Positions 2,516 through 63,860 of a DNA stretch of 64,000 nucleotides are shown one piece after another. Source of the stretch: Candidatus Methanophagaceae archaeon (GTDB lineage: Archaea > Halobacteriota > Syntropharchaeia > Alkanophagales > Methanospirareceae); contig PQXB01000001.1 of assembly GCA_003194425.1 (NCBI GenBank), positions 263,522 through 327,521 of the forward strand. The letters are read 5' to 3'. The notes beneath the pieces were generated by a model. That model worked only from the letters and a program-made list of their open reading frames with translations. It searched no databases and was not told the DNA's origin. The number at the start of each line of letters is the position of its first letter. The stretch's first letter is position 1. A program made the position numbers and the translations under genes.

Positions 2516-3065
2516 AAGCAGGGGAAATAGGGCAACTGCAACCGCGACTCACGGAACCGGAACGGTTGTGGCAGTGGGAACTGTGCTGGCAGGTGCAAGC
2601 ACGGGTCTTAATCTTGAGGGGATTTTTTATAACGGAGGGACGAAAATTGGGTATGTAGTTCATATTTTTATTGCACGAAGAAAAGTTAAAAAGCAGGAAA
2701 AAGTTAAAAAGCAGGATAAGATAAAAGAGATATTAAAGGAAGCGAAGATGTTAATGACAAACAAATATCATCACGCTCATCTGCATCATTGGTTGGATGG
2801 GAGCGCCGAAGAAGGAAGGAAAGAAGGAGTAAGTGAGGGGCGCTACAAAAATACCGCAAAAATATGAATAAAACAGGGAATAGAGAGATAGAGGATAGTA
2901 TAGAAGGGGGTATAAGAAGGTGAAAGGGAAGAGCGCGGAGAAAAGCAGGGAAAAAACGAGTGAAAGGGGAAAAGCAAGTAGAAATAGAGCAGAATACCGA
3001 AACCTTTTTATACATACTACCGAAAAGCATATATACCCCTTCAAAGAAATAGAAGGTATAAAAAA

Positions 3066-3089
3066 AATTAGGAGGTGAAAACAAAAAAA
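3066..3089 (+). promoter_or_regulatory. Conserved leader / Shine-Dalgarno element ATTAGGAGGTGAAAAC upstream of ATG
   Basis: Near-identical motif also precedes starts at 17473, 19890, 50921(-) and, as GGGGGTGA, 62916(-); complementary to the CCUCC 3' end of 16S rRNA. Confidence 0.5.
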
Positions 3090-3710
3090 ATGAAAACGAA
3101 GATTGGCAAAAAAAGTATAGGAATATTGATTGCAGCGATAATAGTTACTTCAGTCTTTGCAGCGATTGCGCCGACAATTGGTCAGGAAGGAGATGATGGG
3201 ATAGTAGAACCGGAATGGGCACCACCAGCACCGTGGGGACCGGGCTTAAATATTACAATAGCGACACCACCAGAAGATTCCTGCGTGCACGATACGATAA
3301 ACCTTACGTGGCTAAAGAATGGCACGACTACCCCGGCAGTTTTAAAGGATTATCTGTATGTAGCGCTCGTTGACTGTGGGTCGCCGTATTGTATGCACAC
3401 AATAGAAGAGAAAGTCTGCCTGCATGGTTGTACCTACTATGAGGTAGATCTCACAGATAATGATTGGCAGAAACACATAGACCAGTGCGAGGAGTTCTGT
3501 ATATATGTCTGGAATTCTTCTACCAGATTCGGACTACCTGACACCTCATACTTTAGGAACGGGACTACGCTTAGATATGACAAAGTAGAGCCGTGCATAG
3601 AAGCGGTCGATCCAATAGATGGCAGATGGGTTAACTGCACAGCGGATCTTGAGTTGAACGTTTCGGCATGTGACTGGAGTCATAATTCCGCAGTGGGAAT
3701 AGTAAAGTAA
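3090..3710 (+). CDS. Secreted cysteine-rich hypothetical protein
   Basis: ATG at 3090 sits 8 nt after AGGAGGTGA (ORF track starts at in-frame GTG 3075); N-terminal MKTKIGKK + hydrophobic signal peptide; many Cys. Confidence 0.5.
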   Translation: MKTKIGKKSIGILIAAIIVTSVFAAIAPTIGQEGDDGIVEPEWAPPAPWGPGLNITIATPPEDSCVHDTINLTWLKNGTTTPAVLKDYLYVALVDCGSPYCMHTIEEKVCLHGCTYYEVDLTDNDWQKHIDQCEEFCIYVWNSSTRFGLPDTSYFRNGTTLRYDKVEPCIEAVDPIDGRWVNCTADLELNVSACDWSHNSAVGIVK

Positions 3711-3799
3711 AGGAGAACAGAAAAAAAAGGACCATAAAAAATTTGGATAGAAGAGGAACAAAAACCTCTTCTATTTTTTTATTTTTTTTGAACGGAAAA

Positions 3800-4912
3800 A
3801 TGAAATCTGTTAGTGTTATTGCGATGATAATTTTTGCACTCGCCGTGGCAGTGGAAGTGGCAGCAGCAATTCCGCCCTCTCCAAAATACGAAGTATATCG
3901 CGGCGATGTCTTCGTTAACGGAACGCTTGCGCCAGACGGGACGAGAGTGTCAGTAAAAGTAGGTGCGCTCGACGAAGTGGAAGACAGCACAGAAAATGGA
4001 ACATATTGGATAGCAATTAAATCCTCGCAAGCGAGCCAAGGAGACATGGTAACGCTTAAAATATACGATGCAGTCGTGGAGACTGCCAAAATTGATAAAA
4101 ACGACTACATCTCTCAAAATTACATAAATTTATACCTTGAGGATTATTTAGTAAACGAATCCGCACAACCGGACGCTCTGCCCGAAACGACAACCGAGAG
4201 CAGGATATTAGTAAATTGGGCATTTTATTCCGGCTACGACTCAACAGGGGTGAAATGCTACGAGTTGTTAAGGAGATACGAAGATGAGAAAACATTTTCC
4301 TCGCTCGTTAAGACAAATAATACACGCTATTTTGACATTCTAAACGCTACTGGCGAATATTGCTACAGGCTCGTAACCTACGACTTCGTCGGCAACTCCA
4401 AAAATTCTACGCAGGATGTCTGCACAACCTTCGTCTCCAACAAGACCTTCACACTCAACGGCTTCGTGAAATACGAAAACGGGACAGGAGTCAGCAACGC
4501 AAACGTTACCCTTGAAAAATACTTCAATCCTGTAAATTCAACCACCACGACCGAGAAAGGCTACTACGAACTCGCAGCCTCTTGGAAGAGGTACAATTTA
4601 ACCGCGGCGAAAGGAGATGTTTTGGTCTGGGGGAGGGAAGGGAAAGGAGGAGCAAAGTACATTTCCTTCCTTAACAGTTCCGCCGTCGTAAATTTAGACG
4701 CAAACAAGACCGTGAATCTTACTTTGGTAGTGAAAGGGGATTTGGACGGGGACTGCGCGGTGGGAATTGCGGATGTTCGTGTGGTCGCGAGAATGCTAGT
4801 TGGAAGCGTCTCGGAAGACTTGAAAGCGGACTTTAACGGGAACGGTTGCGTGGATTTAGGGGACGCTGCGAAGTTGCTCGGGTTTGTTAAAGGTGGAGTG
4901 AGTAAGTTATAA
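3800..4912 (+). CDS. Secreted protein with C-terminal type-I dockerin-like domain
   Basis: Signal peptide MKSVSVIAMIIFALAVA; C-terminus GDLDGDCAVGIADVRVVARMLVG ... ADFNGNGCVDLGDAAKLLGFV matches the duplicated Ca-binding dockerin segment; ORF track starts at TTG 3743, ATG 3800 preferred. Confidence 0.65.
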   Translation: MKSVSVIAMIIFALAVAVEVAAAIPPSPKYEVYRGDVFVNGTLAPDGTRVSVKVGALDEVEDSTENGTYWIAIKSSQASQGDMVTLKIYDAVVETAKIDKNDYISQNYINLYLEDYLVNESAQPDALPETTTESRILVNWAFYSGYDSTGVKCYELLRRYEDEKTFSSLVKTNNTRYFDILNATGEYCYRLVTYDFVGNSKNSTQDVCTTFVSNKTFTLNGFVKYENGTGVSNANVTLEKYFNPVNSTTTTEKGYYELAASWKRYNLTAAKGDVLVWGREGKGGAKYISFLNSSAVVNLDANKTVNLTLVVKGDLDGDCAVGIADVRVVARMLVGSVSEDLKADFNGNGCVDLGDAAKLLGFVKGGVSKL

Positions 4913-4984
4913 GAGGTGAGTAAGTTATAAGAAACGAAATAAAAAGAATAAGAAGAATAAAGAATAGGAGAAGCACGAGAAAAA

Positions 4985-5422
4985 ATGGGGAAGAAGAAAA
5001 GAGCAAAAGTAAGAATAGGAATGCTAGTAGTAGCGGTAAGTGTAGTAGCGTTGTTTTCGGCATCGGCATTCGCACAGCCGCCGGGTCTGCCATTTGGAAA
5101 CGAGACGACAAACGAAACGGGATTGCCACCCATTCCAATTCCGCCGACACAGCCTCCTGAAAATGCGCCTCTTCCGTCGCCTTCGGTAACCGCAACACTG
5201 CCTGTCTCTGCACCTGCCACTCCAACTGCACCACCAACTGCACCACCAACTGCACCTCCAACTGCACCAACTACTCCTACCGTGACGGTAACAGCAGTAA
5301 CACCAAAACCGCAAGCCGAGACGCCAGGTTTTAGCGTTTCGGCGGTTGTTACAGCAGTGCTTGGTCTTGGGTTTGTGTTAGTGGGGCTTAAAAGGACGGG
5401 GCAAAGAAAGAAGAGCAAATAA
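4985..5422 (+). CDS. Small secreted Pro/Thr-rich protein with PGF-CTERM-like sorting signal
   Basis: Signal peptide, (PTAP)n linker, then PGF (5325..5333) + hydrophobic helix + KRTGQRKKSK tail. Confidence 0.6.
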   Translation: MGKKKRAKVRIGMLVVAVSVVALFSASAFAQPPGLPFGNETTNETGLPPIPIPPTQPPENAPLPSPSVTATLPVSAPATPTAPPTAPPTAPPTAPTTPTVTVTAVTPKPQAETPGFSVSAVVTAVLGLGFVLVGLKRTGQRKKSK

Positions 5423-7870
5423 ATGGAAAGGATAATTGGAATAGCAATTTTCGTTTTGCTAGTCGCAGGGGTAGGGGCAGCGAGCGCCGACACCTTCGTG
5501 CCAGGCGAGGTGATTGTTGGTTTCGAGCGGGCAACAGGAGTGCAGGCACAGGAATCGCTGATAAAAAGCTGCGGCGGGGCAGTAACAGACAGAGACACCA
5601 CGCTTGGCTGGGTGTTAGCGAAGGTAGAAGAGGGGAAAGAGCAGGAATTTATCGCGAACATTTCGGGAGAGCGGGGCGTGAGGTACGCGGAGCGGAACGG
5701 AGTTGTAAGAGCGCTTTACGTTCCTAACGACCCAAAATGGAGTGAGCAGTGGGGACTGGAGAGAATAAACGCGGACGACGCTTGGAAGGTCGAGAAAGGC
5801 AGCACGAGCGTTAAAATCGCGATCGTGGACACAGGCGTAGACTACAACCACGAAGACTTAAACGCGAACTACTTTAGCGGGGGCTACGACTGGGTTAACA
5901 ATGACAGCGACCCTTGGGACGACTCGGTAGGGCAGTACCACGGACACGGCACACACTGCGCTGGGATTGCAGCCGCGGAGATGGATAATTCTGCAGGAAT
6001 CGCCGGCGTCGCGCAAGTCGGAATTCTGGCTGAAAAAGTTATTAACGAGACTGGCTACGGCTCTTACTCGGACTTGGCTAGCGGAATTCAGCACGCCGCA
6101 GCGCAGGGTGCAAAAATAATAAGCCTGAGCGTTGGCGGGAGTTCGGCTTCGCCCACTCTAAAAAATGCCTGCAAGTACGCCTGGGACAAGGGCTGCCTCC
6201 TCGTTGCCGCTGCCGGGAACGACGACACAACCGAAGTCTGCTACCCTGCACGCTACGAGACTGTAGTCGCGGTCGGCGCGATAAATGAGGTGGGCGTTAA
6301 GTCGATTTACAGCAACTACGGACCTGATGTTGAGCTGGCAGCACCCGGCGACGACATTCTCTCGACCCTTCCGAACAACACTTACACCCGCAAATTTGGG
6401 ACTTCGGCGGCTACTCCTTTTGTCGCCGGTGTTGCAGGGTTAGTTTGGTCGCGGAGTCCCGAGCTGACGAACGAGGAGGTGCGGGAGCGGTTGCACAGGG
6501 TCAGCACAGACTACGACTGGGTTGAGTACGGTTTGGTGGACGCAGCGAGGGCGCTCTCCACAGCCGCGGGGTCAGACTACGCACGGGCGGGCTCGCTGAT
6601 TGTAACGATTGGAAAAAACGCAACGACGCAGGTTAGCGTCGGGAACGCGAAAAATATTACCGGCGTCTCGTTGAACCTTGAGTACGACGCCTCTAAACTC
6701 TCGGTTCAAAAAATAGCCGCGAACGAGACGACAAACCAATCTTCAAACGGCTCCTGCTACTGCTACAGCAACACAACCTCCGCAGGAGTCGCAAGAATCG
6801 TTTTCCTCACCGCAGAACCGCTCAACTCAACAACAAGCGAGACCCCGATTCTTGACATTGAATTCAAGGCAGTAGGGGGCGCAGACACTCGCTCTTACTT
6901 GAATTTGAGTAGCGTCGAGTTTGCGAACGCGGGCTACCTGCCTTTCGCACCTTCAAAAGTCTTCAACGGCACGGTAGAGGTGAAGTCCTCCCTTTACGGC
7001 GTGAACCTAACCGTAGAAGGAACGAAGTGTGCGTGGAATTTCACTGAGCCGAACGAGAACGCAACTTTCCTCCTTGCACTGCGCAACACGGGCGTCGTTG
7101 CTGACAACTACACGCTTGAGGTTGAGAGCCCAGAGGGGGCGGAGGTCGCTGCGTTGAACTCAACAGAAATAACAAACCTCGCACCAGAGGCGACCGCAAA
7201 AGTCCTGCTTCAAGTAACCTCCGCAGACGAGGGTACTTACACTGTAAATGTAACCGCGACCTCAGAATGCGACCTGGACATTTACGACCAAGTCACGACG
7301 AGGACGCTCGTAGCCACGAGATATAATTTGCAAACAAGCCTGCTCGAAGGCTGGAACCTGTTCGGAGTGCCGCTAAATGTGAGTGTCGAGGTCGGTGGCA
7401 GTGGCTGGAGTTTGCCCGCGGTCTTGGCTTCAATCGAGGGAAAATACGACTACCTCTCCTACTACAACACGAGCACTGGGAGAACAGATTTCTACGACCC
7501 GCTCAACACCGAATTCTCGACGCTAAAGACCCTGAAACCCGGAGCAGGCTACCTCGTCCACCTAACTGAAGAGGCACCTGTCTCGCTCGAGTTTGAGGGT
7601 GTGAAGTTAAGGGGGTTGGAAGTGCCGTTGGAGAGAGGTTGGAATATGTTCTCGGTTCCGTACGGCGTAGCGGATAAAACGCTACCCGCGGTTCTGAAAT
7701 CAATCGAGGGAAACTACGACTACATTTACTACTACAACGCGACCACAGGGGAAATGGACTACTACGACCCGCTTAATCCCGAACTTTCAACGCTGAAAAT
7801 TTTAGAACCCGGAGCTGGGTATTTAATACACATAATTAACAAAGTAACATATTTTCCGGCAATTAAATAA
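5423..7870 (+). CDS. Secreted subtilisin-like serine protease (S8) with internal cohesin-like domain and C-terminal tandem modules
   Basis: Catalytic triad motifs DTGVDYNHEDL, HGTHCAGIAAA, GTSAATPFVAG; cohesin-like segment ~6590..6990 (LEYDASKLSV, ARIVFLTAE, FNGTVEV); two ~75-aa C-terminal repeats. Confidence 0.85.
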   Translation: MERIIGIAIFVLLVAGVGAASADTFVPGEVIVGFERATGVQAQESLIKSCGGAVTDRDTTLGWVLAKVEEGKEQEFIANISGERGVRYAERNGVVRALYVPNDPKWSEQWGLERINADDAWKVEKGSTSVKIAIVDTGVDYNHEDLNANYFSGGYDWVNNDSDPWDDSVGQYHGHGTHCAGIAAAEMDNSAGIAGVAQVGILAEKVINETGYGSYSDLASGIQHAAAQGAKIISLSVGGSSASPTLKNACKYAWDKGCLLVAAAGNDDTTEVCYPARYETVVAVGAINEVGVKSIYSNYGPDVELAAPGDDILSTLPNNTYTRKFGTSAATPFVAGVAGLVWSRSPELTNEEVRERLHRVSTDYDWVEYGLVDAARALSTAAGSDYARAGSLIVTIGKNATTQVSVGNAKNITGVSLNLEYDASKLSVQKIAANETTNQSSNGSCYCYSNTTSAGVARIVFLTAEPLNSTTSETPILDIEFKAVGGADTRSYLNLSSVEFANAGYLPFAPSKVFNGTVEVKSSLYGVNLTVEGTKCAWNFTEPNENATFLLALRNTGVVADNYTLEVESPEGAEVAALNSTEITNLAPEATAKVLLQVTSADEGTYTVNVTATSECDLDIYDQVTTRTLVATRYNLQTSLLEGWNLFGVPLNVSVEVGGSGWSLPAVLASIEGKYDYLSYYNTSTGRTDFYDPLNTEFSTLKTLKPGAGYLVHLTEEAPVSLEFEGVKLRGLEVPLERGWNMFSVPYGVADKTLPAVLKSIEGNYDYIYYYNATTGEMDYYDPLNPELSTLKILEPGAGYLIHIINKVTYFPAIK

Positions 7871-7886
7871 AATAGGAGACAGAGAA

Positions 7887-10800
7887 ATGGGAGAAAAGGG
7901 AAGGAAGAGAGAGGGGGGAAAGTGGAAGAAGAGACGACTGATTGGAGTAGCGGCGGTGGGGGCGATATTAGTGACGACTTTTGCTTCGCAGGCTGTGTGC
8001 GCATCGGTGCCGTTGTTTAATGAGGCAATACTTAGAGGGTATGTTTTCGATACGCAGGGAAATCCAATACAAAGGGCATTAATTGAATGGCGAGATAGCG
8101 AGACTATGGAACTATTTGAACTTACAACCACAACCTACACAGGATATTATTCCACGCCACACTTGTTCAACGACGCGGGCGCCGTAAGATCCTTGATAAC
8201 CGCCGCAAAGACAGACTTCTCTACTAACTCAACAATAATAACGACCGAGCCTGCTTTTCCGCCTACATTTTACGAACTGAATTTTACATTGCTTGAAATA
8301 GCGGAAACAGGCAGCATAAACATAAACGAGATAATGTACAATCCAAGCACGGAGCAAGGAAGCGACACCGTGCTGGAGTGGATTGAACTGCGCAACGACG
8401 ACACAGCAGCAGTGAACCTAAACGGCTGGACGATTGCGACACCCGAAGTAGGAAAAATAACAGAAGAAATAATTCTGCAGCCGGGAGGTTACGCAGTGCT
8501 TGCGAGGAACAAGGACGCGTTTGAGGCCTACTACGGTGCCGGTGGCGAGTTGTCGTGCTCGGTGGTAGAAGTGGAAATGAGACTTGGAAATGCAGAGGAC
8601 ACGGTAGTCTTGAAAGACGGTGCAGGAACAGAAATCGACCGGGTGTCCTACAAGGACGACTGGGGTGCGGACGGTAACGGGAAAACACTGGAACTAATTG
8701 GAGCAGGCGGGGGCTGGCGAGAGAGCGTAGCAGACGACGGAACGCCTTGTGCAGAGAACAGCGTAGTTTTTATGAAGCCCGACCTGACGGTTACCGTTTC
8801 AGACGGCTCGCTTAACTGCGGCTTCCTCTTCGGGAACGAGAGCAACGAGGTCTGCGTAACTGTCGAGAACATCGGCACTGACAGGACAGACGCGTTCAAC
8901 CTCTCCTTCGATATGAACGGCTTCAGCACAGAAGAGCGAGTGGCTGGCGGGTTAGTGGCTGGCGGGAATGCAACAACGGTCTGCGTCGCCGACCCGACGC
9001 TGCGAAGTGCGGGCGATTCGGTGACCGTTCGCGTCGTCGCAGACTGCAACGGCGAAATTACTGAGTCGAACGAGACGAACAACGCAGCCAGCCTCACAAC
9101 AACAGTCGTGAACAACGGCTACAAAGGAAAACGATACACCGGCGGCGAGGACATCGCCAGTTGGAAGAAATTTGAACTCAACGGCGACCTGCTCTACTCT
9201 GTCGGCGACAGTTTCTATCTGAGTGCTTACACCTACAAGCACTGGACGGAGTACGCTGCAAACTGGACTGTGAGCGACCTGCAAGTTCCTGATACTGAAA
9301 CTGCGACCGTTAGAGAGGCGAGGTTGTACGTGCCTTACACCTGGGACAAGGCAGGTGTGATGCCCGACGAGGTGAGCCTGACCTTCAACGGCGTGACTCA
9401 AACGTTGGACGCACACTACACGGATGAGAAAATGCACGCTACCAGCTACCCCTACGGAATGCTGGTATACAATGTAACCGAAGATTTGGATACAAGCGCA
9501 AGCGGCAACACCGCAGTACTCACTAACTCTCACCTCGGTGGCGGAAATGTGTCAATTCGCGGAATGCTTCTCACGGTGATTTACGCAGACGAGAGCGAGC
9601 CACTGCGTGAGATATTTGTTAACGAGGAGTTTGACCTGCTCTACGGCGGGGCGTCAAAATGCACGACGCCCGAGGAGGCGACCGCTTACGCTCCTTTCGG
9701 AACTGCTGACACTGAAGATGTTCTTTCTGCCACGCTGGTAACAGTCGCTCCTGGTGCAGGACCGAGTGAGGGGGAGCTGACCTTTAACGGGCAGAAATGG
9801 ACGGACGTGTGGAGTTTTGCAGGCGCTACGCAAATAGGAATAGACAAGCGAGAAGTAACTTCGTTCTTGCAGGCGGCCGAGAACGAAGCGGGGTTCCAAA
9901 GCAGCGCCGACTACTTTGAACCGAGCAACGCAATTCTCGTTGTAGAACACATTGAGCGGGTAAACCTAAACATAAACGAGATAATGTACAATCCAAGCAA
10001 GGAGCAAGGAAGCGACACCGTGCTGGAGTGGCTTGAACTGCGCAACGACGACACAGCAGCAGTGAACCTAAACGGCTGGACGATTGCGACACCCGAAGTA
10101 GGAAAAATAACAGAAGAAATAATTCTGCAGCCTGGAGGTTACGCAGTGCTTGCGAGGAACAAGGACGCGTTTGAAAATTACTACGGTGCCGGTGGCGAGT
10201 TGTCGTGCTCGGTGGTAGAAGTGGAAATGAGACTTGGAAATGCAGAGGACACGGTAGTCTTGAAAGACGGTGCAGGAACAGAGATCGACCGGGTGTCCTA
10301 CAAGGACGACTGGGGTGCGGACGGTAACGGGAAAACACTGGAATGGAATGCGACAGGCTGGTTTGAGAGCGAAGTAGAGGGCGGAACGCCTTGTGCAGAG
10401 AACAGCGTAGTTTTTATGAAGCCCGACCTGACGGTTACCGTTTCAGACGGCTCGCTTAACTGCGGCTTCCTCTTCGGGAACGAGAGCAACGAGGTCTGCG
10501 TAACTGTCGAGAACATCGGCACTGACAGGACAGACGCGTTCAACCTCTCCTTCGATATGAACGGCTTCAGCACAGAAGAGCGAGTGGCTGGCGGGTTAGT
10601 GGCTGGCGGGAATGCAACAACGGTCTGCGTCGCCGACCCGACGCTGCGAAGTGCGGGCGATTCGGTGACCGTTCGCGTCGTCGCAGACTGCAACGGCGAA
10701 ATTACTGAGTCGAACGAGACGAACAACGCAGCCAGCCTCACAACAACAGTCGTGAACAACGGCTACAAAGGAAAACGATACACCGGCGGCGAGGACATCG

Positions 10801-26214: not shown

Positions 26215-27218
26215 GTGTAGACCACGGGACCAGTGGAATCCGTTTTGCGGGGCTAAAGAAGGAAAGAAGAAAAAGAGGAGTAGGAGAAGCGGAGGTCTGT
26301 GAGTTGTCGCGGGAGAGGGCGGCGGAGCTGAGCGGCGAGGAGATTTTAAGCGAGGTGGAGGGGGAGCTGAAGATTGAAAGAGACGGGATAAATTTGCTTG
26401 CACTGACCTACTCGATGGGAGACGGCTTCTCCAAGATAAAAAGCGTTGAGAAGGTGCCGAACAGGGGTGTGAGGAGCGGAGAAGGAGCAGGTGCAAGAGT
26501 CGGCGGCGGGACAAAGGTCTTTGACGCCCTGAAGGACGCAGGCGTTCCTGCGATTTTGATTCCGGGCATTCACGCTGGGAGCGAGAAGTTGGACCGCAGA
26601 ATGAAGTTCTTCTCGCACGGGGCGAGTCCCGAGAAAGTCGGCGTTGCGTACCACCTTTACAAGAAAGGCTTTGAGAACTTCATTTTTTCAGACATTAGTT
26701 CTAACACCGTTACGGTGGCGGTCGCGAGCGGGGTGGTAGTGGGGGCGGTGGACGCTTGCTTGGGCGCTCCTGGGTTGTTTCAGGGTCCGCTTGACCTTCA
26801 GCTGTTGCGGGAGATTGAGAGTGGGCGGGTAAGCGCGAACGAAGCGTTCTCAAACGCCGGCGTCCTGCGTAAGAGGTGGGTGGGCGGAGTAAGGGGCGGA
26901 GTAAGGGGCGGAGTAAGGAAAGAGGGAGAGGAGGAGTTGGTGCTCGACGCTCTCGCTTTGTTTGCGGCGATGGAAATCTCGGCGATGCAGGTTCTTATGC
27001 GAGATTGCGGCGTGGGTGTAGAAGCGTCTCGTGTTTTCCTTACAGGCTCGGTGGGTGAAAAGGAGGAGGTGAAGCGGAGGATCGAGAGGCTCTTGGACAG
27101 CGGCGACGGCGAGACCGAGACTTTAACGAGGTGGAGTGCGGCAGTAGGGTGTGCGGAGATTGCAAAGGATGTTTTTTACGGCGAGAGGGAGATATTGGGG
27201 ATCGAAGTGGAGTTGTGA
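26205..27218 (+). CDS. Hypothetical ASKHA-type ATPase-like protein (BadF/BadG/BcrA/BcrD-like N-terminus)
   Basis: N-terminal VGVDHGTSGIRFA phosphate-1-like motif; function not assignable. Confidence 0.45.
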   Translation: MFVGVDHGTSGIRFAGLKKERRKRGVGEAEVCELSRERAAELSGEEILSEVEGELKIERDGINLLALTYSMGDGFSKIKSVEKVPNRGVRSGEGAGARVGGGTKVFDALKDAGVPAILIPGIHAGSEKLDRRMKFFSHGASPEKVGVAYHLYKKGFENFIFSDISSNTVTVAVASGVVVGAVDACLGAPGLFQGPLDLQLLREIESGRVSANEAFSNAGVLRKRWVGGVRGGVRGGVRKEGEEELVLDALALFAAMEISAMQVLMRDCGVGVEASRVFLTGSVGEKEEVKRRIERLLDSGDGETETLTRWSAAVGCAEIAKDVFYGEREILGIEVEL

Positions 27219-27255
27219 GTGTTCCTAAGATGGTTATTGTGGGGGAGAAGCCGTT

Positions 27256-27690
27256 GTGAAAAAAGAGGACGCAAATAAAGCTTTATGGGACTATTATAAA
27301 ATATTGTCAGAACAATGCATACATGTAGGAACACAATTACATCGGAGTCTTTCTTTGAGTATCATGTGTATGATGTTATTTTTAACATTTACAGGGCTTT
27401 TGATAACTCAAAAGGTAAATTTTTCTTTTAATTTAGTTACTATAGGAATAGCTATTATCGACTTTGTAATTTTTTTGTTTTTCATTTCATCTGTTGGTTA
27501 TTATCTTCACCTACGAATTCATCTGCACAATATTTTTGGTACTGTTATGAAGATGGAAGAATTACAACGCGATATCCTTTTCGATAAAGTAAGTGAAGAT
27601 GAATTAGAAATGAGATTTGAAGGGGTTTATCCTTTTTTAAATGCCTCTAGATATAAAACAAAATGGAAAATTTTGTTTAGGAGATGGTAA
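27256..27690 (+). CDS. Hypothetical small membrane protein (AT-rich island)
   Basis: GTG start, hydrophobic segments, base composition markedly lower in GC than flanks. Confidence 0.4.
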   Translation: MKKEDANKALWDYYKILSEQCIHVGTQLHRSLSLSIMCMMLFLTFTGLLITQKVNFSFNLVTIGIAIIDFVIFLFFISSVGYYLHLRIHLHNIFGTVMKMEELQRDILFDKVSEDELEMRFEGVYPFLNASRYKTKWKILFRRW

Positions 27691-27933
27691 ATGGCGTAAT
27701 GATACAAAAATTAGTAAATATTCTTTTATTTAAAAGAAAGGAAATATTAAAAAGGTGGTTGAAAATGAAAGGCGCTAAAAAAGTTCATTTCCCTGTTCTC
27801 GTGGAGAGGGATGAAAATGGTTTTTTGTGGTTGAATGTCCTTTTCTTCAAGGGTGCTACATACAGGGCAAAACGCTGGACCAGGCGTTGAAAAACAGAAC
27901 ATGCATGAAGAGAAGAAAAAGAGCAAAAGAATA

Positions 27934-29370
27934 ATGGAACTAAACCGATTGTACTACGGCGACAACTTAACGATTCTCCGAAGATACTTTCCTGACGAGT
28001 CGGTAGACCTGATTTATTTAGACCCGCCGTTCAACTCCAACGCCTCTTACAACATCCTTTTTAAAGAGCCGGGGACAGGCGGCGAGCAGTCAGCCGCGCA
28101 AATTACCGCCTTCGACGACACTTGGCACTGGACAAGCGAGAGCGAGCAGACGTTCCAAGAGATTGTTAAGACCGCTCCTGCGACGGTTGTTAATTTAATG
28201 ACCGCGTTGAAGGACGCTATTCACAGAAACGACCTGCTGGCTTACCTCACGATGATGTGCATTCGGCTTCTTGAGTTGAAGCGAGTTTTGAAGCAGACTG
28301 GCTCTCTTTATTTGCACTGCGACCCGACCGCGAGTCATTACTTGAAGATCCTTCTAGACGCTATCTTTGGAAAGGAGAATTTCAGGAATGAAATAATTTG
28401 GAGTTATCGAAGATGGCCAGCAAAGCAGGAAAATTTTCAGAGGATGCACGACACGATTTTGCGTTACTCAAAAACAGAGAAAGTCATTTGGAACCAACTT
28501 TTTGAACCACTCGCAAAATCGACTTTAAAAGCGGATGGCGGAAATAAAATTCTTAATGTTTTTGATCCAGATACAGGAAAACGGATTCGTGGTAAAAAAA
28601 CGGGCGAAAAATCTCTGGGCGCACCGTTGCGAGATGTGTGGGAAATTTCAGTAATCGCACCAACTGCCAAAGAGCGTGTTGGCTACCGAACGCAGAAGCC
28701 CGAAGCCCTCCTTGAACGCATCATAAAAGCGTCCTCAAACGAGGGCGACGTGGTCTTAGACCCGTTCTGCGGCTGCGGGACTGCAGTAGCAGTTGCCGAG
28801 AGACTCGGTCGCCGCTGGATTGGAATTGACATCACGCATCTCGCTATCAATTTAATAAAAGGGAGATTAAAAGACAATTTCCCAGAGATTGCGTTTTCGG
28901 TCGTCGGCGAGCCAGTAGATTTAGCAGGTGCCGAAGCGTTAGCAAGACAGAACCGCTACCAATTTCAGTGGTGGGCACTCTCGCTAGTCGACGCCAGACC
29001 GTTCGGCGATAAAAAGAAAGGTGCTGACACTGGAATCGACGGCTTCTACTACTTCAACGACGGCGGGACGACAAAGAAGGCGGTCGTCTCTGTTAAGAGC
29101 GGGAAAGTAGGCGTAAGCCAAATCCGAGAGCTAAACGCGGTCGTAGAACGCGAAAAGGCGGAAATGGGCTTCTTCTTGACTCTAAAAACTCCAACAGCAG
29201 CAATGAAAGAAGCAGCCACTGGTGAAGGCTTTTATTTAGATTCCTTCGGGAATAAATATCCGAAGCTGCAACTCTTTACAATTGAAGAACTTCTTAACAA
29301 TAAAAGTCCAGACACGCCGCAAAAAGTCGGTCTCTTTGAATCTTACCGAGCAAAAAAATCAAAAGGATAA
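27934..29370 (+). CDS. DNA methyltransferase (N4/N6 beta-class) with C-terminal Mrr-like PD-(D/E)xK-fold domain
   Basis: Motif IV DPPFNS, motif I DPFCGCGTAV; C-terminal GADTGIDG...VSVKSGK...LFTIEELL; ORF is open from 27835, ATG 27934 (MELNRLYYGDN) preferred. Confidence 0.75.
   Translation: MELNRLYYGDNLTILRRYFPDESVDLIYLDPPFNSNASYNILFKEPGTGGEQSAAQITAFDDTWHWTSESEQTFQEIVKTAPATVVNLMTALKDAIHRNDLLAYLTMMCIRLLELKRVLKQTGSLYLHCDPTASHYLKILLDAIFGKENFRNEIIWSYRRWPAKQENFQRMHDTILRYSKTEKVIWNQLFEPLAKSTLKADGGNKILNVFDPDTGKRIRGKKTGEKSLGAPLRDVWEISVIAPTAKERVGYRTQKPEALLERIIKASSNEGDVVLDPFCGCGTAVAVAERLGRRWIGIDITHLAINLIKGRLKDNFPEIAFSVVGEPVDLAGAEALARQNRYQFQWWALSLVDARPFGDKKKGADTGIDGFYYFNDGGTTKKAVVSVKSGKVGVSQIRELNAVVEREKAEMGFFLTLKTPTAAMKEAATGEGFYLDSFGNKYPKLQLFTIEELLNNKSPDTPQKVGLFESYRAKKSKG
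28951..29355 (+). repeat. Direct repeat copy A (~0.4 kb) flanking pyrF
   Basis: About 90% identical to 30121..30525 with several perfectly identical blocks of 43-64 nt. Confidence 0.85.
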
Positions 29371-56306: not shown

Positions 56307-57563
56307 ATGAAAATGAAAGACAAAGGGAACATTCTGGATTTGGAGGCTGAAGTGATTTACAACGGGCTGTGCTGCTACTGCGGGACTTGCGGTGCGTTCT
56401 GCAAGGAGTACATTTCATTCGAGCAGGAGCGACCCGTGACGAGGAAGAAGTGTTACGAGATTCACGGTGCGTGCTACGATTTCTGCCCCCGGACTTTCTT
56501 CGCTCCTTTTGAGGTAGAGCGGGCGGTCTTCGGCGCCGTGCGGCGCGACAACCTGCTGGGCTACTACGCAACCGAAGAAGACATTTTTACGGCACGAGCG
56601 ACTGACGAAACGGTGAGAGCGCGGGGGCAGGACGGCGGCGTTGTCTCGGCGCTGCTCGGCTTCCTGCTTGAGCGCGGGGAGTTGGACGCGGCGGTCGTTT
56701 CGAAGAAGTCTGAAGAAGGAGAGGGAGAAGGAGAGGGAGAAGGAACTGGTGAAGGAACTGGTGAAGGAACTGGTGAAGGAACTGGTGAAGGAGCGGGGGT
56801 GTGGGAAGCCGAGCCGTTCGTTGCGACGACCAAAGAGGAGGTGCTGGCAGGAGCGGGCTCGAAGTACACGCAGTGCCCTTCGGTCTTGGGCGTTGGCGAC
56901 GCTCTCGAACGGGGGTACAAGAAGGTCGCACTCGTTGGGCTGCCGTGCCACATTCAAGGAATGCGGAAGGTTCAACTCTCGCGGGGGTTTGATGTCGGGG
57001 CGGAGCGGGTGAAGTTGTGCGTCGGGCTCTTCTGCACCGAGACTTTAGAAATGCCGCGGCTCAAGGCGAAGTTGGCGGAGTTGGGCACGAGAATAGAAGA
57101 GGTCGAAAAGTTCAACATAAAAAAAGGCAAATTCATCGTGCAGACGCAGGAGGGGAAAGAGTTAAAGACGCCGATAAAAAAGCTGCGGGACTGCGTGCGC
57201 GAGGCGTGCGACTACTGCTACGATTTTGCCGCGGAGTTCGCTGACCTCTCGGTCGGTTCAATCGGCTCCGAACTCGGCTGGTCTACTGTGATTGTGAGAA
57301 GCGAGCCGGGGCGGGAAGCGGTGAAGCAGGCGGAAGAAGCGGGCATTTTGGAAACCGCAAGGCTCTCCGAGGAGCAGTTAGAGGCAGTGCGGGGCTTGGC
57401 GTCGTTCAAGAAGCAGGGGAACTTGAAGAGCATTTACGAGAAGGCGGAGCGGGTTAGAATAATGAATCTTGAGGTGGAGCCGGAGAGGTTGGGGAAGTTT
57501 TTTGGTGTAGGTGGAGAGAAAAAAGAGAAGAAAGAAAAGAGGGGTGAAAGAAAATGGCGGTAG
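56307..57563 (+). CDS. Coenzyme F420 hydrogenase/dehydrogenase beta-subunit-family protein
   Basis: N-terminal Cys cluster [11 protein letters not shown] and FrhB-like body; (EG/TGEG)n insert. Confidence 0.65.
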
Positions 57564-59076: not shown

Positions 59077-60153
59077 TTACACCCTCGCGGTCCTCTCGCG
59101 CACCGCAGCCACAATTATCGGCAACGCGATCGTGGCGTCGCAGTAAACCGTAACCGCCCGCGCGTTCGCACCGACCTTGCCCCACGACTTCGCTTCGTCC
59201 AGCGTCGCACCGCTTAATCCCCCGTTCTCCGGCGTCTCGGTGGTTATTTGAATCGCGTAGTCAAAGCCCTCTCGCTCTCTCTCTCGCTCTTGCTCCTCAC
59301 CTCCGTCTCTCCCCTGCACCCGCGGCGGTGCGACCAGCGCGGTCTGGAAAATAAAGTTCTTAGGCACGCCGCCGCCGAGAATTAGCACCCCTGTCCGTTT
59401 CGCCTCGCAGAAAATATCCACCAACTCCTTCATATCCTCGAACGCGTCCACTCGTAAATTGCTCGTCTGCTTGTAAATCCAAGCGTGAAGTCCGATCATA
59501 GAATCCGCAATCGCAGGGCAGAACACGGGCACCCCGCTCTCCGCTGCACTTCGTAAAATAGAATCCGGGTCCGAGAGGCTCTCTCCAATCGCTCTTGTCA
59601 GTTCCCTAATGCTGTACCGCTTCTCCCTCTCCTTCTTCTCCACCCTCTTCTCCCTCTCCTCTCTCTCCGCCCTCTTCTGACCGAGTTTTTCAAAAACGCC
59701 CCTCAAAAAATCCTCCAACCTCGCAAACGCCTCGTCACGCACAATTACATCGTAGATTCTGTCGCTCCCTTCGCCTCGCAGCCACACGTCGTCCACCGCT
59801 GCACCTGGGTCTGCGCCGCCTACGGCTTCGCCTACGATTTTGTAGTGCCGCTCGCCGAGTGCTTCCAGAATGTCGTGCACGAGGTTTGCGCCCGTCGTTA
59901 CCACCACATCCACGAGCCGCTCCCGAATCATCTCTGCCAGCACGGTTCGCATTCCCGCAGGAACTAACGCACCAGCAACACCCAGGAACTTTGTCGTCTT
60001 TTCGCCCTCTCCCCTCTGCAGCATTTCCTCGTAAATGTCCACCGCCTCCGCCAACCTGCCGGCTCCGAAGGCACAGCCGCCCAAACCTCTCACAAGCTCG
60101 TCTACGCTCGTCTTCTTCCCGATTTTCACGCCCTGCACTTCCTTTAGCCGCAT
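59077..60153 (-). CDS. dys: Deoxyhypusine synthase
   Basis: Family resemblance (VPAGMR, VVVTTGANLVHD); Glu/Arg repeat inserts. Confidence 0.7.
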   Translation of the reverse strand: MRLKEVQGVKIGKKTSVDELVRGLGGCAFGAGRLAEAVDIYEEMLQRGEGEKTTKFLGVAGALVPAGMRTVLAEMIRERLVDVVVTTGANLVHDILEALGERHYKIVGEAVGGADPGAAVDDVWLRGEGSDRIYDVIVRDEAFARLEDFLRGVFEKLGQKRAEREEREKRVEKKEREKRYSIRELTRAIGESLSDPDSILRSAAESGVPVFCPAIADSMIGLHAWIYKQTSNLRVDAFEDMKELVDIFCEAKRTGVLILGGGVPKNFIFQTALVAPPRVQGRDGGEEQEREREREGFDYAIQITTETPENGGLSGATLDEAKSWGKVGANARAVTVYCDATIALPIIVAAVRERTARV

Positions 60154-60200
60154 TCCCTATTGCTCTGTTTTTATTTTAGCAATTTATAAACAGATGTAAA

Positions 60201-61175
60201 ATGAGCATTACATTCAAGGAACTTGCAAAGAAAGTGCTAAAAGAAGAAAAGAAGCCCCTTACAGCAGAAAAAATCTGGGAAATCGCAAGACAAAAGAGAT
60301 ATGACAAACTTGGAAATTTCAAAGGCAAAACTCCTTGGAGATCAATTGGAGCGAGAATTTATGTAGACATTAGAGATAACAAGCAGTCTCCCTTTGTTAA
60401 AATAGATTCCAAACCGAGAAAGTTTTTCCTGCGAGAATTAACAAGCAAAGAAGATTTGAGAAAAATAGAAGAAGGGGCGAACGTAGAAGTAGAAAGACCA
60501 GTAGAAGTAGAACCTACCGAAACAAAATATTCAGAAAAGGATTTACACCCCTTCTTAACATATTTTGCTTATGCCTACCTTGGAGTGCACACAAAGACAA
60601 TAAGTCACGAAAAATCGAGCAAGAAAAGTTACGCACAATGGTTGCATCCCGATTTGGTAGGTGTCTATTTCCCAATTGGCGAATGGAAAGACGAGGTTAT
60701 AGATTTTGCTAAGGAAGTAGGCACTAAACTTATCAGGGTGTACTCTTTTGAGATGAAAAAAGAGTTGACTTTTTCAAACCTGCGAGAGTCCTTCTTTCAA
60801 ACTGTTTCTAACTCATCTTGGGCAAATGAGGGGTATCTTGTTGCTGCAAAAATATCTCAAGACGATGATTTTCTATCCGAAGTGAAGCGGCTGTCTGCTT
60901 CATTTGGGATAGGAATAATAAAAATTGATTTAGAAGATCCGGATTCATCAGAAGTTCTATTTCCTGCAAGATTCAAGAGCGAATTGGATTGGGAGACCAT
61001 CAATAAACTGAGTACGGGAAATCGTGATTTTAGGGAGTTCATAAAAAGGATAAAGATTGACATTTCCAGTAAAGAGGTGAGAAAAGAGAAATATGACAAG
61101 GTCTATGAAACAGAAAAATTAAAGGAGGATCTCAAGAATATTAAAGGAGGATCTCAAGAATTCTCGATTTATTAA
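60201..61175 (+). CDS. HARE-HTH domain protein with C-terminal PD-(D/E)xK nuclease-like region
   Basis: N-terminus ITFKELAKKVLKEEKKPLTAEKIWEIA...GKTPWRSIGARIYVD is HARE-HTH-like; downstream hPDLVGV ... FEMKK fits PD-(D/E)xK; AT-rich gene next to tRNA-Pro. Confidence 0.55.
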   Translation: MSITFKELAKKVLKEEKKPLTAEKIWEIARQKRYDKLGNFKGKTPWRSIGARIYVDIRDNKQSPFVKIDSKPRKFFLRELTSKEDLRKIEEGANVEVERPVEVEPTETKYSEKDLHPFLTYFAYAYLGVHTKTISHEKSSKKSYAQWLHPDLVGVYFPIGEWKDEVIDFAKEVGTKLIRVYSFEMKKELTFSNLRESFFQTVSNSSWANEGYLVAAKISQDDDFLSEVKRLSASFGIGIIKIDLEDPDSSEVLFPARFKSELDWETINKLSTGNRDFREFIKRIKIDISSKEVRKEKYDKVYETEKLKEDLKNIKGGSQEFSIY

Positions 61176-61219
61176 ATTTTATAAACGCTTTATAAACGAG
61201 AAAAACAAAACAGAGGGTA

Positions 61220-61292
61220 GGGGCTGTAAGGTAGCCAGGCATCCTCCCAGCTCGGGGAGCTGGTAACCGGAGTTCAAATCTCCGCAGCCCCA
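61220..61292 (+). tRNA. tRNA-Pro (anticodon GGG)
   Basis: Acceptor GGGGCTG/CAGCCCC, anticodon arm CCAGC-UCGGGGA-GCTGG, T arm CGGAG-TTCAAAT-CTCCG; position 33 is C (unusual). Confidence 0.7.
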
Positions 61293-61410
61293 TTTTTTTT
61301 AGTCCGAAGCACTAAATTCCAAATAAAATCAAAAAGGCAAAAAAATAAAAAGAGGAGTAGTGCCTCTCCTCCTCTGCCCGATTTCTGCTCTGCTCTACTC
61401 TTACCCTTAC

Positions 61411-62916
61411 CTACCTCATTCTTTCAACCACTCTCTTCAAATTCTCCTCTAGTCCTGCTCCTGTTTCTGCTCCTGCTCCTGTTGCTGCTGGCACTGCTCC
61501 TGCTTCTCCTTTCCAGTACGGCACGTAAGCCCACCACAAAGCGTCGCACTCGAAGACCTCGCCTCCTGCTGCGGCGTCCGAGAGCTGCACGTAGAACAAA
61601 TTCCCGAACGGCTCGGCACCCCAGTTCGGAATCCCGAAACTGAACTCAAGGCTCTCGCTGTACTCCGCGGCGACCGACTTGGTCAGCACAGGCACGCAGA
61701 CGCTGTACTCCGGCACTACCCAGAACCACTGGAATTCCAAACTGCAGTTCGTCGGGTTCGCAACGCTCACTGCAACTTCCATTTTGTCCCCGATTCTGTA
61801 CTCTGTCTTGTCGGTCGCAACGGAAACGCTCGGCTCGCCGATTTCAAACGAGACCGTCGGCTCCGGGTCGGCGTGTTTGCGAATAAAAATCCAGTTTGCA
61901 AAACCTTCAATTTCCCCTGGGTGCCAAGCATCTGTGTTAAACTCAACAATGGGTGCAAATTTTGAATCACTGTCTTTTTGAATATCGTAGTCTTTGCTCA
62001 AAATATGGTGGTGCTCGTGGAATCCCTCCAAGTGACTTGCATAGATTACTGTTTTTAATCGGTTGGGCTGAGTGAAATTAAAGCTGTATCCTGGATTATT
62101 GTCTCTATCTATATAAATATTGCTCCCTTTTTTCAGTTTAATAAGATAGGGCTTTTCGCTTTCGTATTCCAGACCGTATGCGAACACAGCCGTGAATTCT
62201 GTGTCTGTGTCTGTTAAGCTGCCGTTACCGAATAGCACACCCACTCCAAAGTTTTTATTCCACCAGTCCATCGGCATTTTCATCTCTGCTTCTACGACCA
62301 ATGGGAACTTGGTGTCAAAACTGATATTTTTTGGTTTTAAAACGAAACTACCTTGAGTAGGTCTGTACGCTCTCAACCATCCATCGTCCAGAGAGAAATT
62401 TATCTCTGCGGGGTAATAGAAATCGATGCAGTCATCGCGATCCCATGAAAAACCTTGCCAATTGTTTAGTGAAGAAGGACTGCTGAAATTGTCGAAGAAC
62501 TCGAAGACCGCGTTACCTTTGCTCTCGCTCGCTGCTGCGGGGTTGCCCCAGCGCATTTTCAAAAAGACGCTCTCGCCCGCGGGCAGAACCGGCACGCGCA
62601 CCCAAACCGCCCCTCGCTTCTCCACGCCGTCAAACTCCTCAAGCCAGTAGTTCAACTCCTGCCCTGCGAACGAAAATCGGAGGTCGCCCCCGTCGGTCTT
62701 CGCTTCGGTCGGGAAGTTCTCGCCCGACAAATTCACGAGAATCGGGTACTCGTGAAGCGTCGTTCCAGAGTTCTCGGAGACGCGGAGGGTCGTTGAGAAA
62801 GCCCAGTCGCCGCTGCCGAGCGGGGTCGCTGCCGCTGCTGCGGAGGTCGCTGCTAACACTACTGCCGTTGTCAAAAAAGCAATTGCCAGCACTTTTCTGC
62901 TTGTTTTTGTAGTCAT
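61411..62916 (-). CDS. Secreted DUF2341-like / lectin-like protein with the shared C-terminal domain
   Basis: ATG 62916 after GGGGGTGA; signal peptide; DUF2341-like DGGDLRFSFAGQELNYWLEEF...VWVRVP; C-terminal SVATDKTEYRIGDKMEV...WWAYVPYW. Confidence 0.7.
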   Translation of the reverse strand: MTTKTSRKVLAIAFLTTAVVLAATSAAAAATPLGSGDWAFSTTLRVSENSGTTLHEYPILVNLSGENFPTEAKTDGGDLRFSFAGQELNYWLEEFDGVEKRGAVWVRVPVLPAGESVFLKMRWGNPAAASESKGNAVFEFFDNFSSPSSLNNWQGFSWDRDDCIDFYYPAEINFSLDDGWLRAYRPTQGSFVLKPKNISFDTKFPLVVEAEMKMPMDWWNKNFGVGVLFGNGSLTDTDTEFTAVFAYGLEYESEKPYLIKLKKGSNIYIDRDNNPGYSFNFTQPNRLKTVIYASHLEGFHEHHHILSKDYDIQKDSDSKFAPIVEFNTDAWHPGEIEGFANWIFIRKHADPEPTVSFEIGEPSVSVATDKTEYRIGDKMEVAVSVANPTNCSLEFQWFWVVPEYSVCVPVLTKSVAAEYSESLEFSFGIPNWGAEPFGNLFYVQLSDAAAGGEVFECDALWWAYVPYWKGEAGAVPAATGAGAETGAGLEENLKRVVERMR

Positions 62917-63031
62917 TTTTTTTTCGTCACCCCCTAATTTTTTCTTCCCCCTTGTTTTCTTCTCGCCTGAAGATAAGAGGAAGATAAGAGGAGCGTGACA
63001 AAGTTTTGTTATCTTTTCGTATTTTTTCATC

Positions 63032-63406
63032 ATGTTTAACATAAATATAATTTGTTTTGTCTCTTTAAATACTTACCTCGTTTTTATCTCTAAAAATACA
63101 AGAAAATTGAATGCGAGGAGAAGTAGAGAGAAGAGGGAAAGGAATGAGAGAAAGTTTTCTTATTGGGCGGAGTTGGAAGGAGGGGGGAGGAGATATTGGT
63201 ACGAGGTCGTCGGGAGATTTGGGTTTAGAGCCCGTTATGTCAAAGAGGTTGATGAACGAGAAGAAACAATCAAATTTTACCAAGAAATATACGATGACAA
63301 AGGCGATTTAGTGGAGGTTCACGAGAAGTTTCCGAGAGATTTGGGGCATCGGCGGTTAAGAAGAAAAACAGAAGGAACAGAAGAAAATGGTGAGGAAAAT
63401 CACTAA
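63032..63406 (+). CDS. Hypothetical protein (AT-rich region; start uncertain)
   Basis: Open reading frame only; non-ATG start. Confidence 0.25.
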   Translation: MFNINIICFVSLNTYLVFISKNTRKLNARRSREKRERNERKFSYWAELEGGGRRYWYEVVGRFGFRARYVKEVDEREETIKFYQEIYDDKGDLVEVHEKFPRDLGHRRLRRKTEGTEENGEENH

Positions 63407-63662
63407 GCAGGATGTAGCGAGAAAAATATCGTCTTATCTCAACCGTACGATCACGCTTGAGCAGATGGTTGATTGGGCGGAGGAGATGATCTGCGAAGCC
63501 GAATATGAGGAGGGGGATTTTGAGTTGATAAAGGAGGTCTTGAGTCGTTTGGGGCTTGCGGATGTCAAGGAGTTCGGGCTGTCCTGGGACGACTGCTACA
63601 ATTTCCTCTCACGATTGGGCTACCAAGTCAGAGTTTTTTTGTTTTACAAAACAGATAAAAAA
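63387..63662 (+). CDS. Hypothetical small protein (3' end uncertain; ORF reads through tRNA-Thr to 63785)
   Basis: Plausible globular N-terminal 90 aa; the C-terminal part of the ORF is antisense to the tRNA and probably not coding. Confidence 0.25.
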
Positions 63663-63734
63663 AGCCCTGGGCGGGACTCGAACCCGCGCTCTCCACCTTA
63701 CCAAGGTGGCGCATTTCCACTATGCTACCAAGGC
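63663..63734 (-). tRNA. tRNA-Thr (anticodon GGU)
   Basis: Acceptor GCCTTGG/CCAGGGC, D arm GCAT/ATGC, anticodon arm CCACC-UUGGUAA-GGTGG, T arm GCGGG-TTCGAGT-CCCGC. Confidence 0.8.
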
Positions 63735-63860
63735 ACCAATTTTTTCACTTTTTTATTTTTGTGTTTATTTTATTTTTGTGCTTAACTTTATATAGAACCG
63801 CAAATATACAAAAATAAAAAGTAAAGAAAAAACAAGGAAAAAACAAGGAGAAGAAAAGAA

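Follow-up and report, generated by a model that had tools for sequence, protein, structure and literature searches.

A horizontally acquired HrgA/COG2958-family gene, a candidate stand-alone restriction-like endonuclease, between deoxyhypusine synthase and tRNA-Pro in an ANME-1 archaeon

HrgA, named for "restriction-endonuclease-replacing gene A" of Helicobacter pylori, typifies the family DUF511, and in H. pylori hrgA takes the position of the restriction gene hpyIIIR beside the methylase gene hpyIIIM (PMC3045609). The family has been predicted to combine a winged helix at the N-terminus with a canonical PD-(D/E)XK domain (Laganeckas et al. 2011, PMC3045609), and DUF511 (PF04373), which corresponds to COG2958, has been listed in the PD-(D/E)XK superfamily (Steczkiewicz et al. 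2012, PMC3424549). The methylase beside hrgA is often inactive and none is positionally conserved (PMC3045609). Fusions of a restriction endonuclease (REase) domain with a HARE-HTH domain have been reported in two settings, downstream of Dnd genes and, as backup effectors, within BREX loci, and it has been proposed that HARE-HTH discriminates modified DNA (PMC10853773, PMC12839542). Here, we describe a HrgA-like gene in a 64,000-nucleotide stretch of DNA ("the window") from a methane-oxidising (ANME-1) Candidatus Methanophagaceae archaeon (assembly GCA_003194425.1, contig PQXB01000001.1, forward-strand positions 263,522 to 327,521), where it lies between the genes for deoxyhypusine synthase (DS) and tRNA-Pro(GGG). 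Our results point to a horizontally acquired, stand-alone restriction-like defence endonuclease of the HrgA/COG2958 family, a reading that we consider somewhat better than even (probability about 0.55). An earlier note, made from the sequence alone, had proposed a solitary restriction or defence gene acquired horizontally at this place. That reading was largely correct and the observation behind it is real, but its part on tRNA integration is unsupported, and it had missed that the gene belongs to a named and described family. Its label 'type IV-like' agrees with what has been predicted in print for proteins that pair HARE-HTH with an REase, and is kept here as a possibility.

Judged by its similarity to known sequences, the protein is an ordinary member of the HrgA/COG2958/former DUF511 family, already described and not new. 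A homology search returned more than 5600 proteins, nearly all of about 309 aa and 60-85% identical, with at least 92% of the query covered and with hosts in the archaea (Methanophagaceae, Heimdallarchaeota, other Euryarchaeota) and in the bacteria (Thermosipho, Bacillus smithii, Anoxybacillus, Chloroflexi); several are named 'COG2958 family protein' in the databases and others 'HTH domain-containing protein'. The full-library search gave 441 clusters at 50% identity (E<=1e-30), almost all equal in length. Among plasmids, tblastn found 30 records at 34-56% identity, with E values from 3e-104, for the nearest, unnamed HTH-domain proteins, to about 1e-29, and many of these coding sequences (CDSs) are annotated as 'HrgA protein', others as COG2958 family. 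Besides full-length similarity to named members, the protein has the N-terminal HARE-HTH and the C-terminal PD-(D/E)xK domain with its canonical motifs. The Pfam search returned HARE-HTH only and no match to PF04373 (DUF511), which may no longer be in Pfam-A; in view of the strong direct similarity to named members, the missing match is not counted against membership.

The HARE-HTH-like N-terminus recognised earlier is matched by PF05066 with E=4e-17 (score 62.8 bits, cut-off 25.9), the sole Pfam match of the protein. The 'RE' in the name of this domain comes from the present family. The motifs that had suggested a nuclease are both present in the 324-aa open reading frame (ORF) as stated, LHPDLVGV at aa 148-155 and FEMKK at aa 183-187. 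In an alignment of 32 homologues, with a mean column identity of 67% and 68 invariant columns, E112, H116, H149-P150-D151, E184-x-K186, Q200 and S203-N-S-S-W207 are invariant. The AlphaFold2 (AF2) model built on this alignment (mean predicted local distance difference test score, pLDDT, 84.4; predicted template modelling score, pTM, 0.67) has the alpha-beta-beta-beta-alpha-beta order of the restriction-endonuclease core, with E112 just ahead of helix 1, D151 (codon 60651-60653) opening strand 2 (152-156), and E184 (60750-60752) and K186 (60756-60758) within strand 3 (179-189). Structure prediction, which had been named as the test of a restriction-endonuclease-like fold, came out in favour of it. 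The modelled domain is a nuclease domain with intact catalytic residues E112, D151, E184 and K186, and would be expected to cleave DNA. The region that follows is conserved as well: D263, W264, T266, N268, K269, N274, D287, E292, Y298 and D299 are invariant, and the predicted helices 264-273, 275-290 and 304-315 have pLDDT of about 90 or above. A sequence search of the PDB gave zero matches at E<=10. When the gene is compared with its closest homologues, the ratio of nonsynonymous to synonymous substitution rates (dN/dS) comes to 0.07-0.15, and for all but the nearest two of those compared the synonymous sites have reached saturation. With ratios this low and synonymous sites saturated, the high conservation reflects constraint and not recent spread alone, and these estimates show the gene to be under purifying selection.

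The composition of the gene is clearly different from that of its surroundings, and the AT-richness described in the earlier note was confirmed. The GC content is 0.369 while the window mean is 0.525 (standard deviation 0.042 in 975-bp windows), which places the gene about 3.7 standard deviations low and makes it the minimum of the window, with one further segment, at about 27.1 kb, equally low. At third codon positions the GC content (GC3) falls to 0.35, the two flanking genes having 0.69.

The DS beside the nuclease gene is 63-72% identical to the DS of Methanophagales (ANME-1) genomes, and relatives were compared at the 29 closest genome loci (L009-L037), 20 of them inspected in detail. A further, metagenomic contig (L001) matches the window at 99% identity and has the nuclease gene too; since such identity marks it as the same population, it is uninformative on presence or absence. 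tRNA-Pro(GGG) is present in 22 of the 29 loci, and in the 20 detailed ones it lies 25-317 bp upstream of DS, divergently in 18, while a homologue of the nuclease protein was found by tblastn in none of the 29. As DS and tRNA-Pro are adjacent in relatives without the gene, the nuclease gene is an insertion into the DS/tRNA-Pro spacer. With L090, which has the closest homologue, similarity at the DNA level (86%) is confined to 60199-61138, that is, the ORF itself. When 60192-61197 is deleted in silico, a spacer of 60 bp remains, to be compared with 60-62 bp in five relatives, and this reconstructed spacer is collinear with theirs (the start of DS, a TTTATAA element, about 22 nt rich in A, and the tRNA); the empty site reads ...GCAATTTATAAACGAGAAAAAC... 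Horizontal acquisition as a single-gene insertion limited to the ORF is well supported by these comparisons. The acquisition proposed in the earlier note is borne out by absence of the gene at the same locus in about 20 Methanophagales and by homologues of 60-85% identity in bacteria and archaea; a gene syntenic and GC-typical in relatives, which would have spoken against it, is not what their loci contain. For ANME-1 biology, the locus offers a clean, datable instance of single-gene acquisition. These results also bear on the idea that the protein is a housekeeping nuclease for DNA repair or recombination, or a DNA-binding regulator. Its absence from all the closest loci, its foreign composition and its patchy distribution across the domains of life argue against a housekeeping role, and the invariant catalytic residues against a pure regulator, so that we hold this to be very improbable.

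The earlier note had seen in tRNA-Pro a classic integration hotspot, and the gene could on this ground be what decay has left of an integrative element whose island entered at tRNA-Pro. The tRNA gene does follow closely, with 44 nt and not 45 between the stop codon and its start; one homologue (L091) has an integrase gene after it, and the DNA 3' of the tRNA differs between strains. However, the nuclease gene stands upstream of the 5' end of tRNA-Pro, on the same strand and inside the promoter spacer, and the foreign DNA is the ORF alone. At up to 3 mismatches, the 64 kb contain either 31-nt half of the tRNA a single time, and the attachment-site repeat suggested as a check was found for neither half. 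An integrase was not found in the last 10 kb of the window or in the next 10 kb in L001, where the range inspected was +/-10 kb. We find this explanation hardly credible, and the hotspot part of the proposal is given up. The interval marked in the earlier note, 60170-61292, does contain the nuclease gene together with a short upstream spacer and tRNA-Pro, and is to that extent wider than the gene.

The 9-mer TTTATAAAC occurs four times in the 64 kb against 0.33 expected, and three of the four copies bracket the ORF in one orientation. Such a pattern could be left by a selfish, homing-like nuclease gene that cuts AT-rich sites such as TTTATAAAC and is copied into the break by repair. This would account for the insertion of a bare ORF without mobile-element genes, for the flanking 9-mers, for the cross-domain spread of a widely transferred gene that is AT-richer than its hosts, and for the replacement of hpyIIIR by recombination. 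Against it, the 9-mer resembles an archaeal TATA box and relatives have it at the same place. The three flanking copies fall on TATA-box-like elements in the divergent promoters of DS and tRNA-Pro; the second right copy lies 22 nt upstream of tRNA-Pro and, by archaeal promoter geometry, is likely its TATA box, and TTTATAA stands at a comparable distance upstream of the tRNA in relatives. Nor does the family as a whole give a flanking-repeat signal: the mean longest shared word is 7.25 nt in 71 family loci and 6.95 nt in 265 control genes (p=0.04), and because this signal is marginal, the copies are not read as a signature of transposition. In addition, the insertion contexts are unrelated to each other, the gene is outside introns and inteins, and the defence-island contexts found elsewhere fit defence better. 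We consider a homing-like origin improbable, and the flanking copies may be a target duplication, a product of microhomology recombination or simply the TATA boxes of each gene. A bolder proposal, to which we give little credence, is that the gene is self-mobile, a free-standing homing-type gene with TATA-box-like targets such as TTTATAAAC that crosses between bacteria and archaea and enters promoter spacers without silencing either gene; in a milder form, the family would be a true single-gene defence system across domains, missing from current catalogues.

The 3' end of the gene was remodelled by a 22-bp tandem duplication, which gives it the tail ...NIKGGSQEFSIY and a new stop. Relative to its closest homologue, the gene has lost the original stop codon, and the duplication shifts the frame to the TAA at 61173-61175. 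Homologues end about 15 aa sooner, and the extra tail has pLDDT <50. Without the duplication, the frame would appear from a hand translation to continue into the tRNA gene. The features of the locus are collected in Table 1.

Table 1. Coordinates, in the window, of the HrgA-like gene, its parts and the sequences that flank it
Feature	Position	Strand	Remarks
HrgA/COG2958-family CDS	60201..61175	+	324 aa, stop codon included; ORF list
HARE-HTH winged-helix domain (aa 4-74)	60210..60422	+	Pfam PF05066
PD-(D/E)xK nuclease core (about aa 108-260), predicted	60522..60980	+	E112, D151, E184, K186
C-terminal helical region, conserved (about aa 261-315)	60981..61145	+	Invariant residues, AF2 helices
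22-bp tandem duplication (AAAATTAAAGGAGGATCTCAAG / AATATTAAAGGAGGATCTCAAG)	61115..61158	+	Two copies, 95% identical
Inferred inserted segment, 986 bp	60192..61177	+	Essentially bare ORF; borders uncertain by about 10-20 bp
TTTATAAAC, left copy	60183..60191	+	Overlaps palindromic TATA-like element of DS/tRNA spacer
TTTATAAAC, two right copies (61178-61186, 61189-61197)	61178..61197	+	Same orientation as left copy
tRNA-Pro(GGG)	61220-61292	+	ARAGORN; Rfam tRNA 50.7 bits; resident conserved neighbour, outside acquired DNA

The neighbourhoods of the family in other genomes are rich in defence genes. For this comparison, 581 ORFs from 86 family loci were clustered all against all, and the 147 immediate flanking ORFs were searched against Pfam. 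The commonest Pfam families among the latter were Eco57I (6), ResIII (5), N6_Mtase (4), N6_N4_Mtase (3) and HSDR_N (3), followed by D12 methylase, EcoEI_R_C and SWI2_SNF2 with two each, and the PADLOC models most matched by neighbours were those of type II and IIG methyltransferases. The closest homologue (L090) is found downstream of GmrSD and Shedu genes, and another (L173) adjoins HEPN-ApeA and a type ISP enzyme. The homologue of Thermosipho is followed by a PLD-SNF2 helicase and an Eco57I-like methylase, that of Clostridium butyricum by two methylases and a restriction enzyme, and one more (L093) adjoins a methylase. In the conjugative plasmid pVPS43 of Vibrio parahaemolyticus (L176), a hrgA homologue (4794-5729) lies between hsdS and hsdR in a type I restriction-modification operon, beside which are an integrase and a SIR2-family gene. 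Further homologues sit among housekeeping genes. The family gene is AT-richer than its own flanks in 55 of 63 loci. Carriage by viruses was considered and rejected, as no homologue was found in 50,697 phage records and only one contig of the 2.9 million in IMG/VR has one, at 39% identity.

These neighbourhoods are also what would be expected if the nuclease were an auxiliary or backup effector that needs a neighbouring type I, ISP or IIG restriction-modification system, Dnd or BREX for self-marking or activation. In that case, the copy in ANME-1 would be an orphan separated from its system, possibly served by a methylase from another part of the host genome, such as the N6_N4 fusion at 27835-29370. 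DNA methyltransferase and restriction-subunit families head the list of neighbours, hrgA stands inside the type I operon of pVPS43, and methylases adjoin the gene in Clostridium butyricum, Thermosipho, L093 and L173. The place of H. pylori hrgA beside hpyIIIM (PMC3045609) and the HARE-HTH and REase genes reported after Dnd genes and in BREX loci (PMC10853773, PMC12839542) point the same way. At the present locus there is no adjacent methyltransferase, the N6_N4 methylase being encoded about 31 kb away in the window, whereas methylases are the commonest neighbours elsewhere. But no conserved partner gene was found, the largest neighbour cluster being present in 6 of the 86 loci, and many copies, including that of ANME-1, are among housekeeping genes. 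The partner methylases are of differing classes, whereas the nuclease is highly conserved, and HpyIIIM is inactive in many strains with hrgA (PMC3045609). We regard dependence on a partner as possible but unlikely.

According to the reading that we prefer, a stand-alone restriction-like defence endonuclease, the HARE-HTH winged helix would bind DNA and select the target, and the PD-(D/E)xK domain, with E112, D151, E184 and K186 as its active site, would cut it. The protein would act alone against incoming DNA, and its target could be DNA with a foreign base modification, as in Type IV systems. The insertion fell in the 60-bp divergent promoter spacer between DS and tRNA-Pro, with no tRNA-directed integrase involved, and since the TATA-like 9-mer is now on both sides, both resident genes would have kept a promoter element.

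Several points weigh against this reading. DNA methylases are well under 1% of prokaryotic genes, and their share of roughly 8-10% among neighbours of the family is a strong enrichment, but one measured against this general share and without a matched control set. Most homologue loci are without recognisable defence neighbours, and in the window the nuclease gene has housekeeping surroundings and no defence island. NCBIfam profiles gave nothing for the protein, and the PADLOC-DB 2.0 defence models gave no match at E<=10. An identity of 60-70% across domains of life with saturated synonymous sites is unusual for a defence gene engaged in an arms race. Because its 3' end is remodelled, full activity of this copy is not certain. 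The binding of modified DNA by HARE-HTH is a published prediction only (PMC10853773, PMC11037411), and the link between hrgA and methylation is unclear because the adjacent methylase of H. pylori is inactive in many hrgA strains (PMC3045609). Our literature search found no biochemical or phage-challenge data on any family member.

For this window, the gene carries little weight, since it adds a further copy to a family that sequence analysis has already described. The interest lies in the family itself, which is common (the 441 clusters span bacteria and archaea), is unusually conserved for a mobile gene (about 60-70% identity, synonymous sites saturated) and is repeatedly found next to restriction-modification, GmrSD, Shedu and HEPN genes while missing from the defence catalogue searched. 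Its substrate would be telling for the old prediction of HARE-HTH as a reader of modified DNA, a matter of relevance to ASXL and HB1 proteins of eukaryotes as well.

Around the nuclease gene, the window encodes DS, a DUF2341 protein and, with no Pfam match, two small ORFs, and an Rfam scan of 59800-61500 gave nothing beyond tRNA-Pro. Just 3' of tRNA-Pro, the window (61809-63058) and L001 (about 10493-10496) have a 1.25-kb difference within the DUF2341-domain gene (61411-63042, - strand), of which L001 has only a truncated remnant of 124 aa. DS has a low-complexity charged insert (59617-59679) with ER/EK-rich runs and 9-bp periodic repeats in its DNA, and such an insert is also seen in an FrhB-like protein (56700-56850); the DS match length among Methanophagales relatives is about 940-1450 nt. 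A 132-aa ORF at 63387-63785 (+ strand) overruns tRNA-Thr(GGT) (63663-63734, - strand). The C-terminal part of this ORF is probably non-coding, even though a gene of 132 aa is called in L001 as well.

Other parts of the window deserve mention. The methylase fusion at 27835-29370 (+ strand) encodes 511 aa with an N6_N4 DNA methyltransferase domain (E=3e-48) and a C-terminal Mrr_cat/NA-iREase1-like restriction-endonuclease domain. Upstream of it is a 144-aa ORF, membrane-protein-like and with no Pfam match, and the AT-rich stretch at about 27000-28100 has a GC content of 0.37, as low as the HrgA-like gene. The fusion may be a second acquired modification/restriction gene, and its presence suggests that the host DNA is methylated. 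A further AT-rich region (2350-3900, GC about 0.41) surrounds a 211-aa ORF (3075-3710), apparently secreted, and a 389-aa ORF (3743-4912).

Compared with known systems, the protein is closest to the HrgA family typified by H. pylori hrgA, with which it shares a length of about 310 aa, a winged helix (HARE-HTH) joined to PD-(D/E)xK with all three motifs, and a sporadic, horizontally moved occurrence with no fixed methylase partner (PMC3045609). It departs from the early description of that family as 'bacterial' in that its host is an archaeon (ANME-1). H. pylori hrgA stands beside a methylase, whereas the ANME-1 gene is alone between housekeeping genes, and unlike other members it has a C-terminal tail remodelled by the 22-bp duplication. 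The HARE-HTH and REase proteins linked to Dnd and BREX (Aravind & Iyer 2012, as summarised in later papers; PMC10853773; PMC12839542) have the same domain pair and the same predicted logic of a reader and a PD-(D/E)xK cutter; the ANME-1 gene is set apart from them in that neither the inspected parts of the window nor L001 showed Dnd or BREX genes. XisH-like, AF1548-like and SPO1766-like small PD-(D/E)xK proteins (2okf, 1y88, 3dnx) are only 11-13% identical to this protein, are without HARE-HTH and without the conserved helices at its C-terminal end, and little is known of what they do. The Type IV fusions of reader and nuclease, such as DpnI and the winged-helix (wH) fusion endonucleases (PMC11037411), MspJI/AspBHI and the SRA-HNH enzyme TagI, offer a parallel for the proposed mode of action; these enzymes have no sequence similarity to this protein (no PDB match), and the part of the reader would be taken here by HARE-HTH instead.
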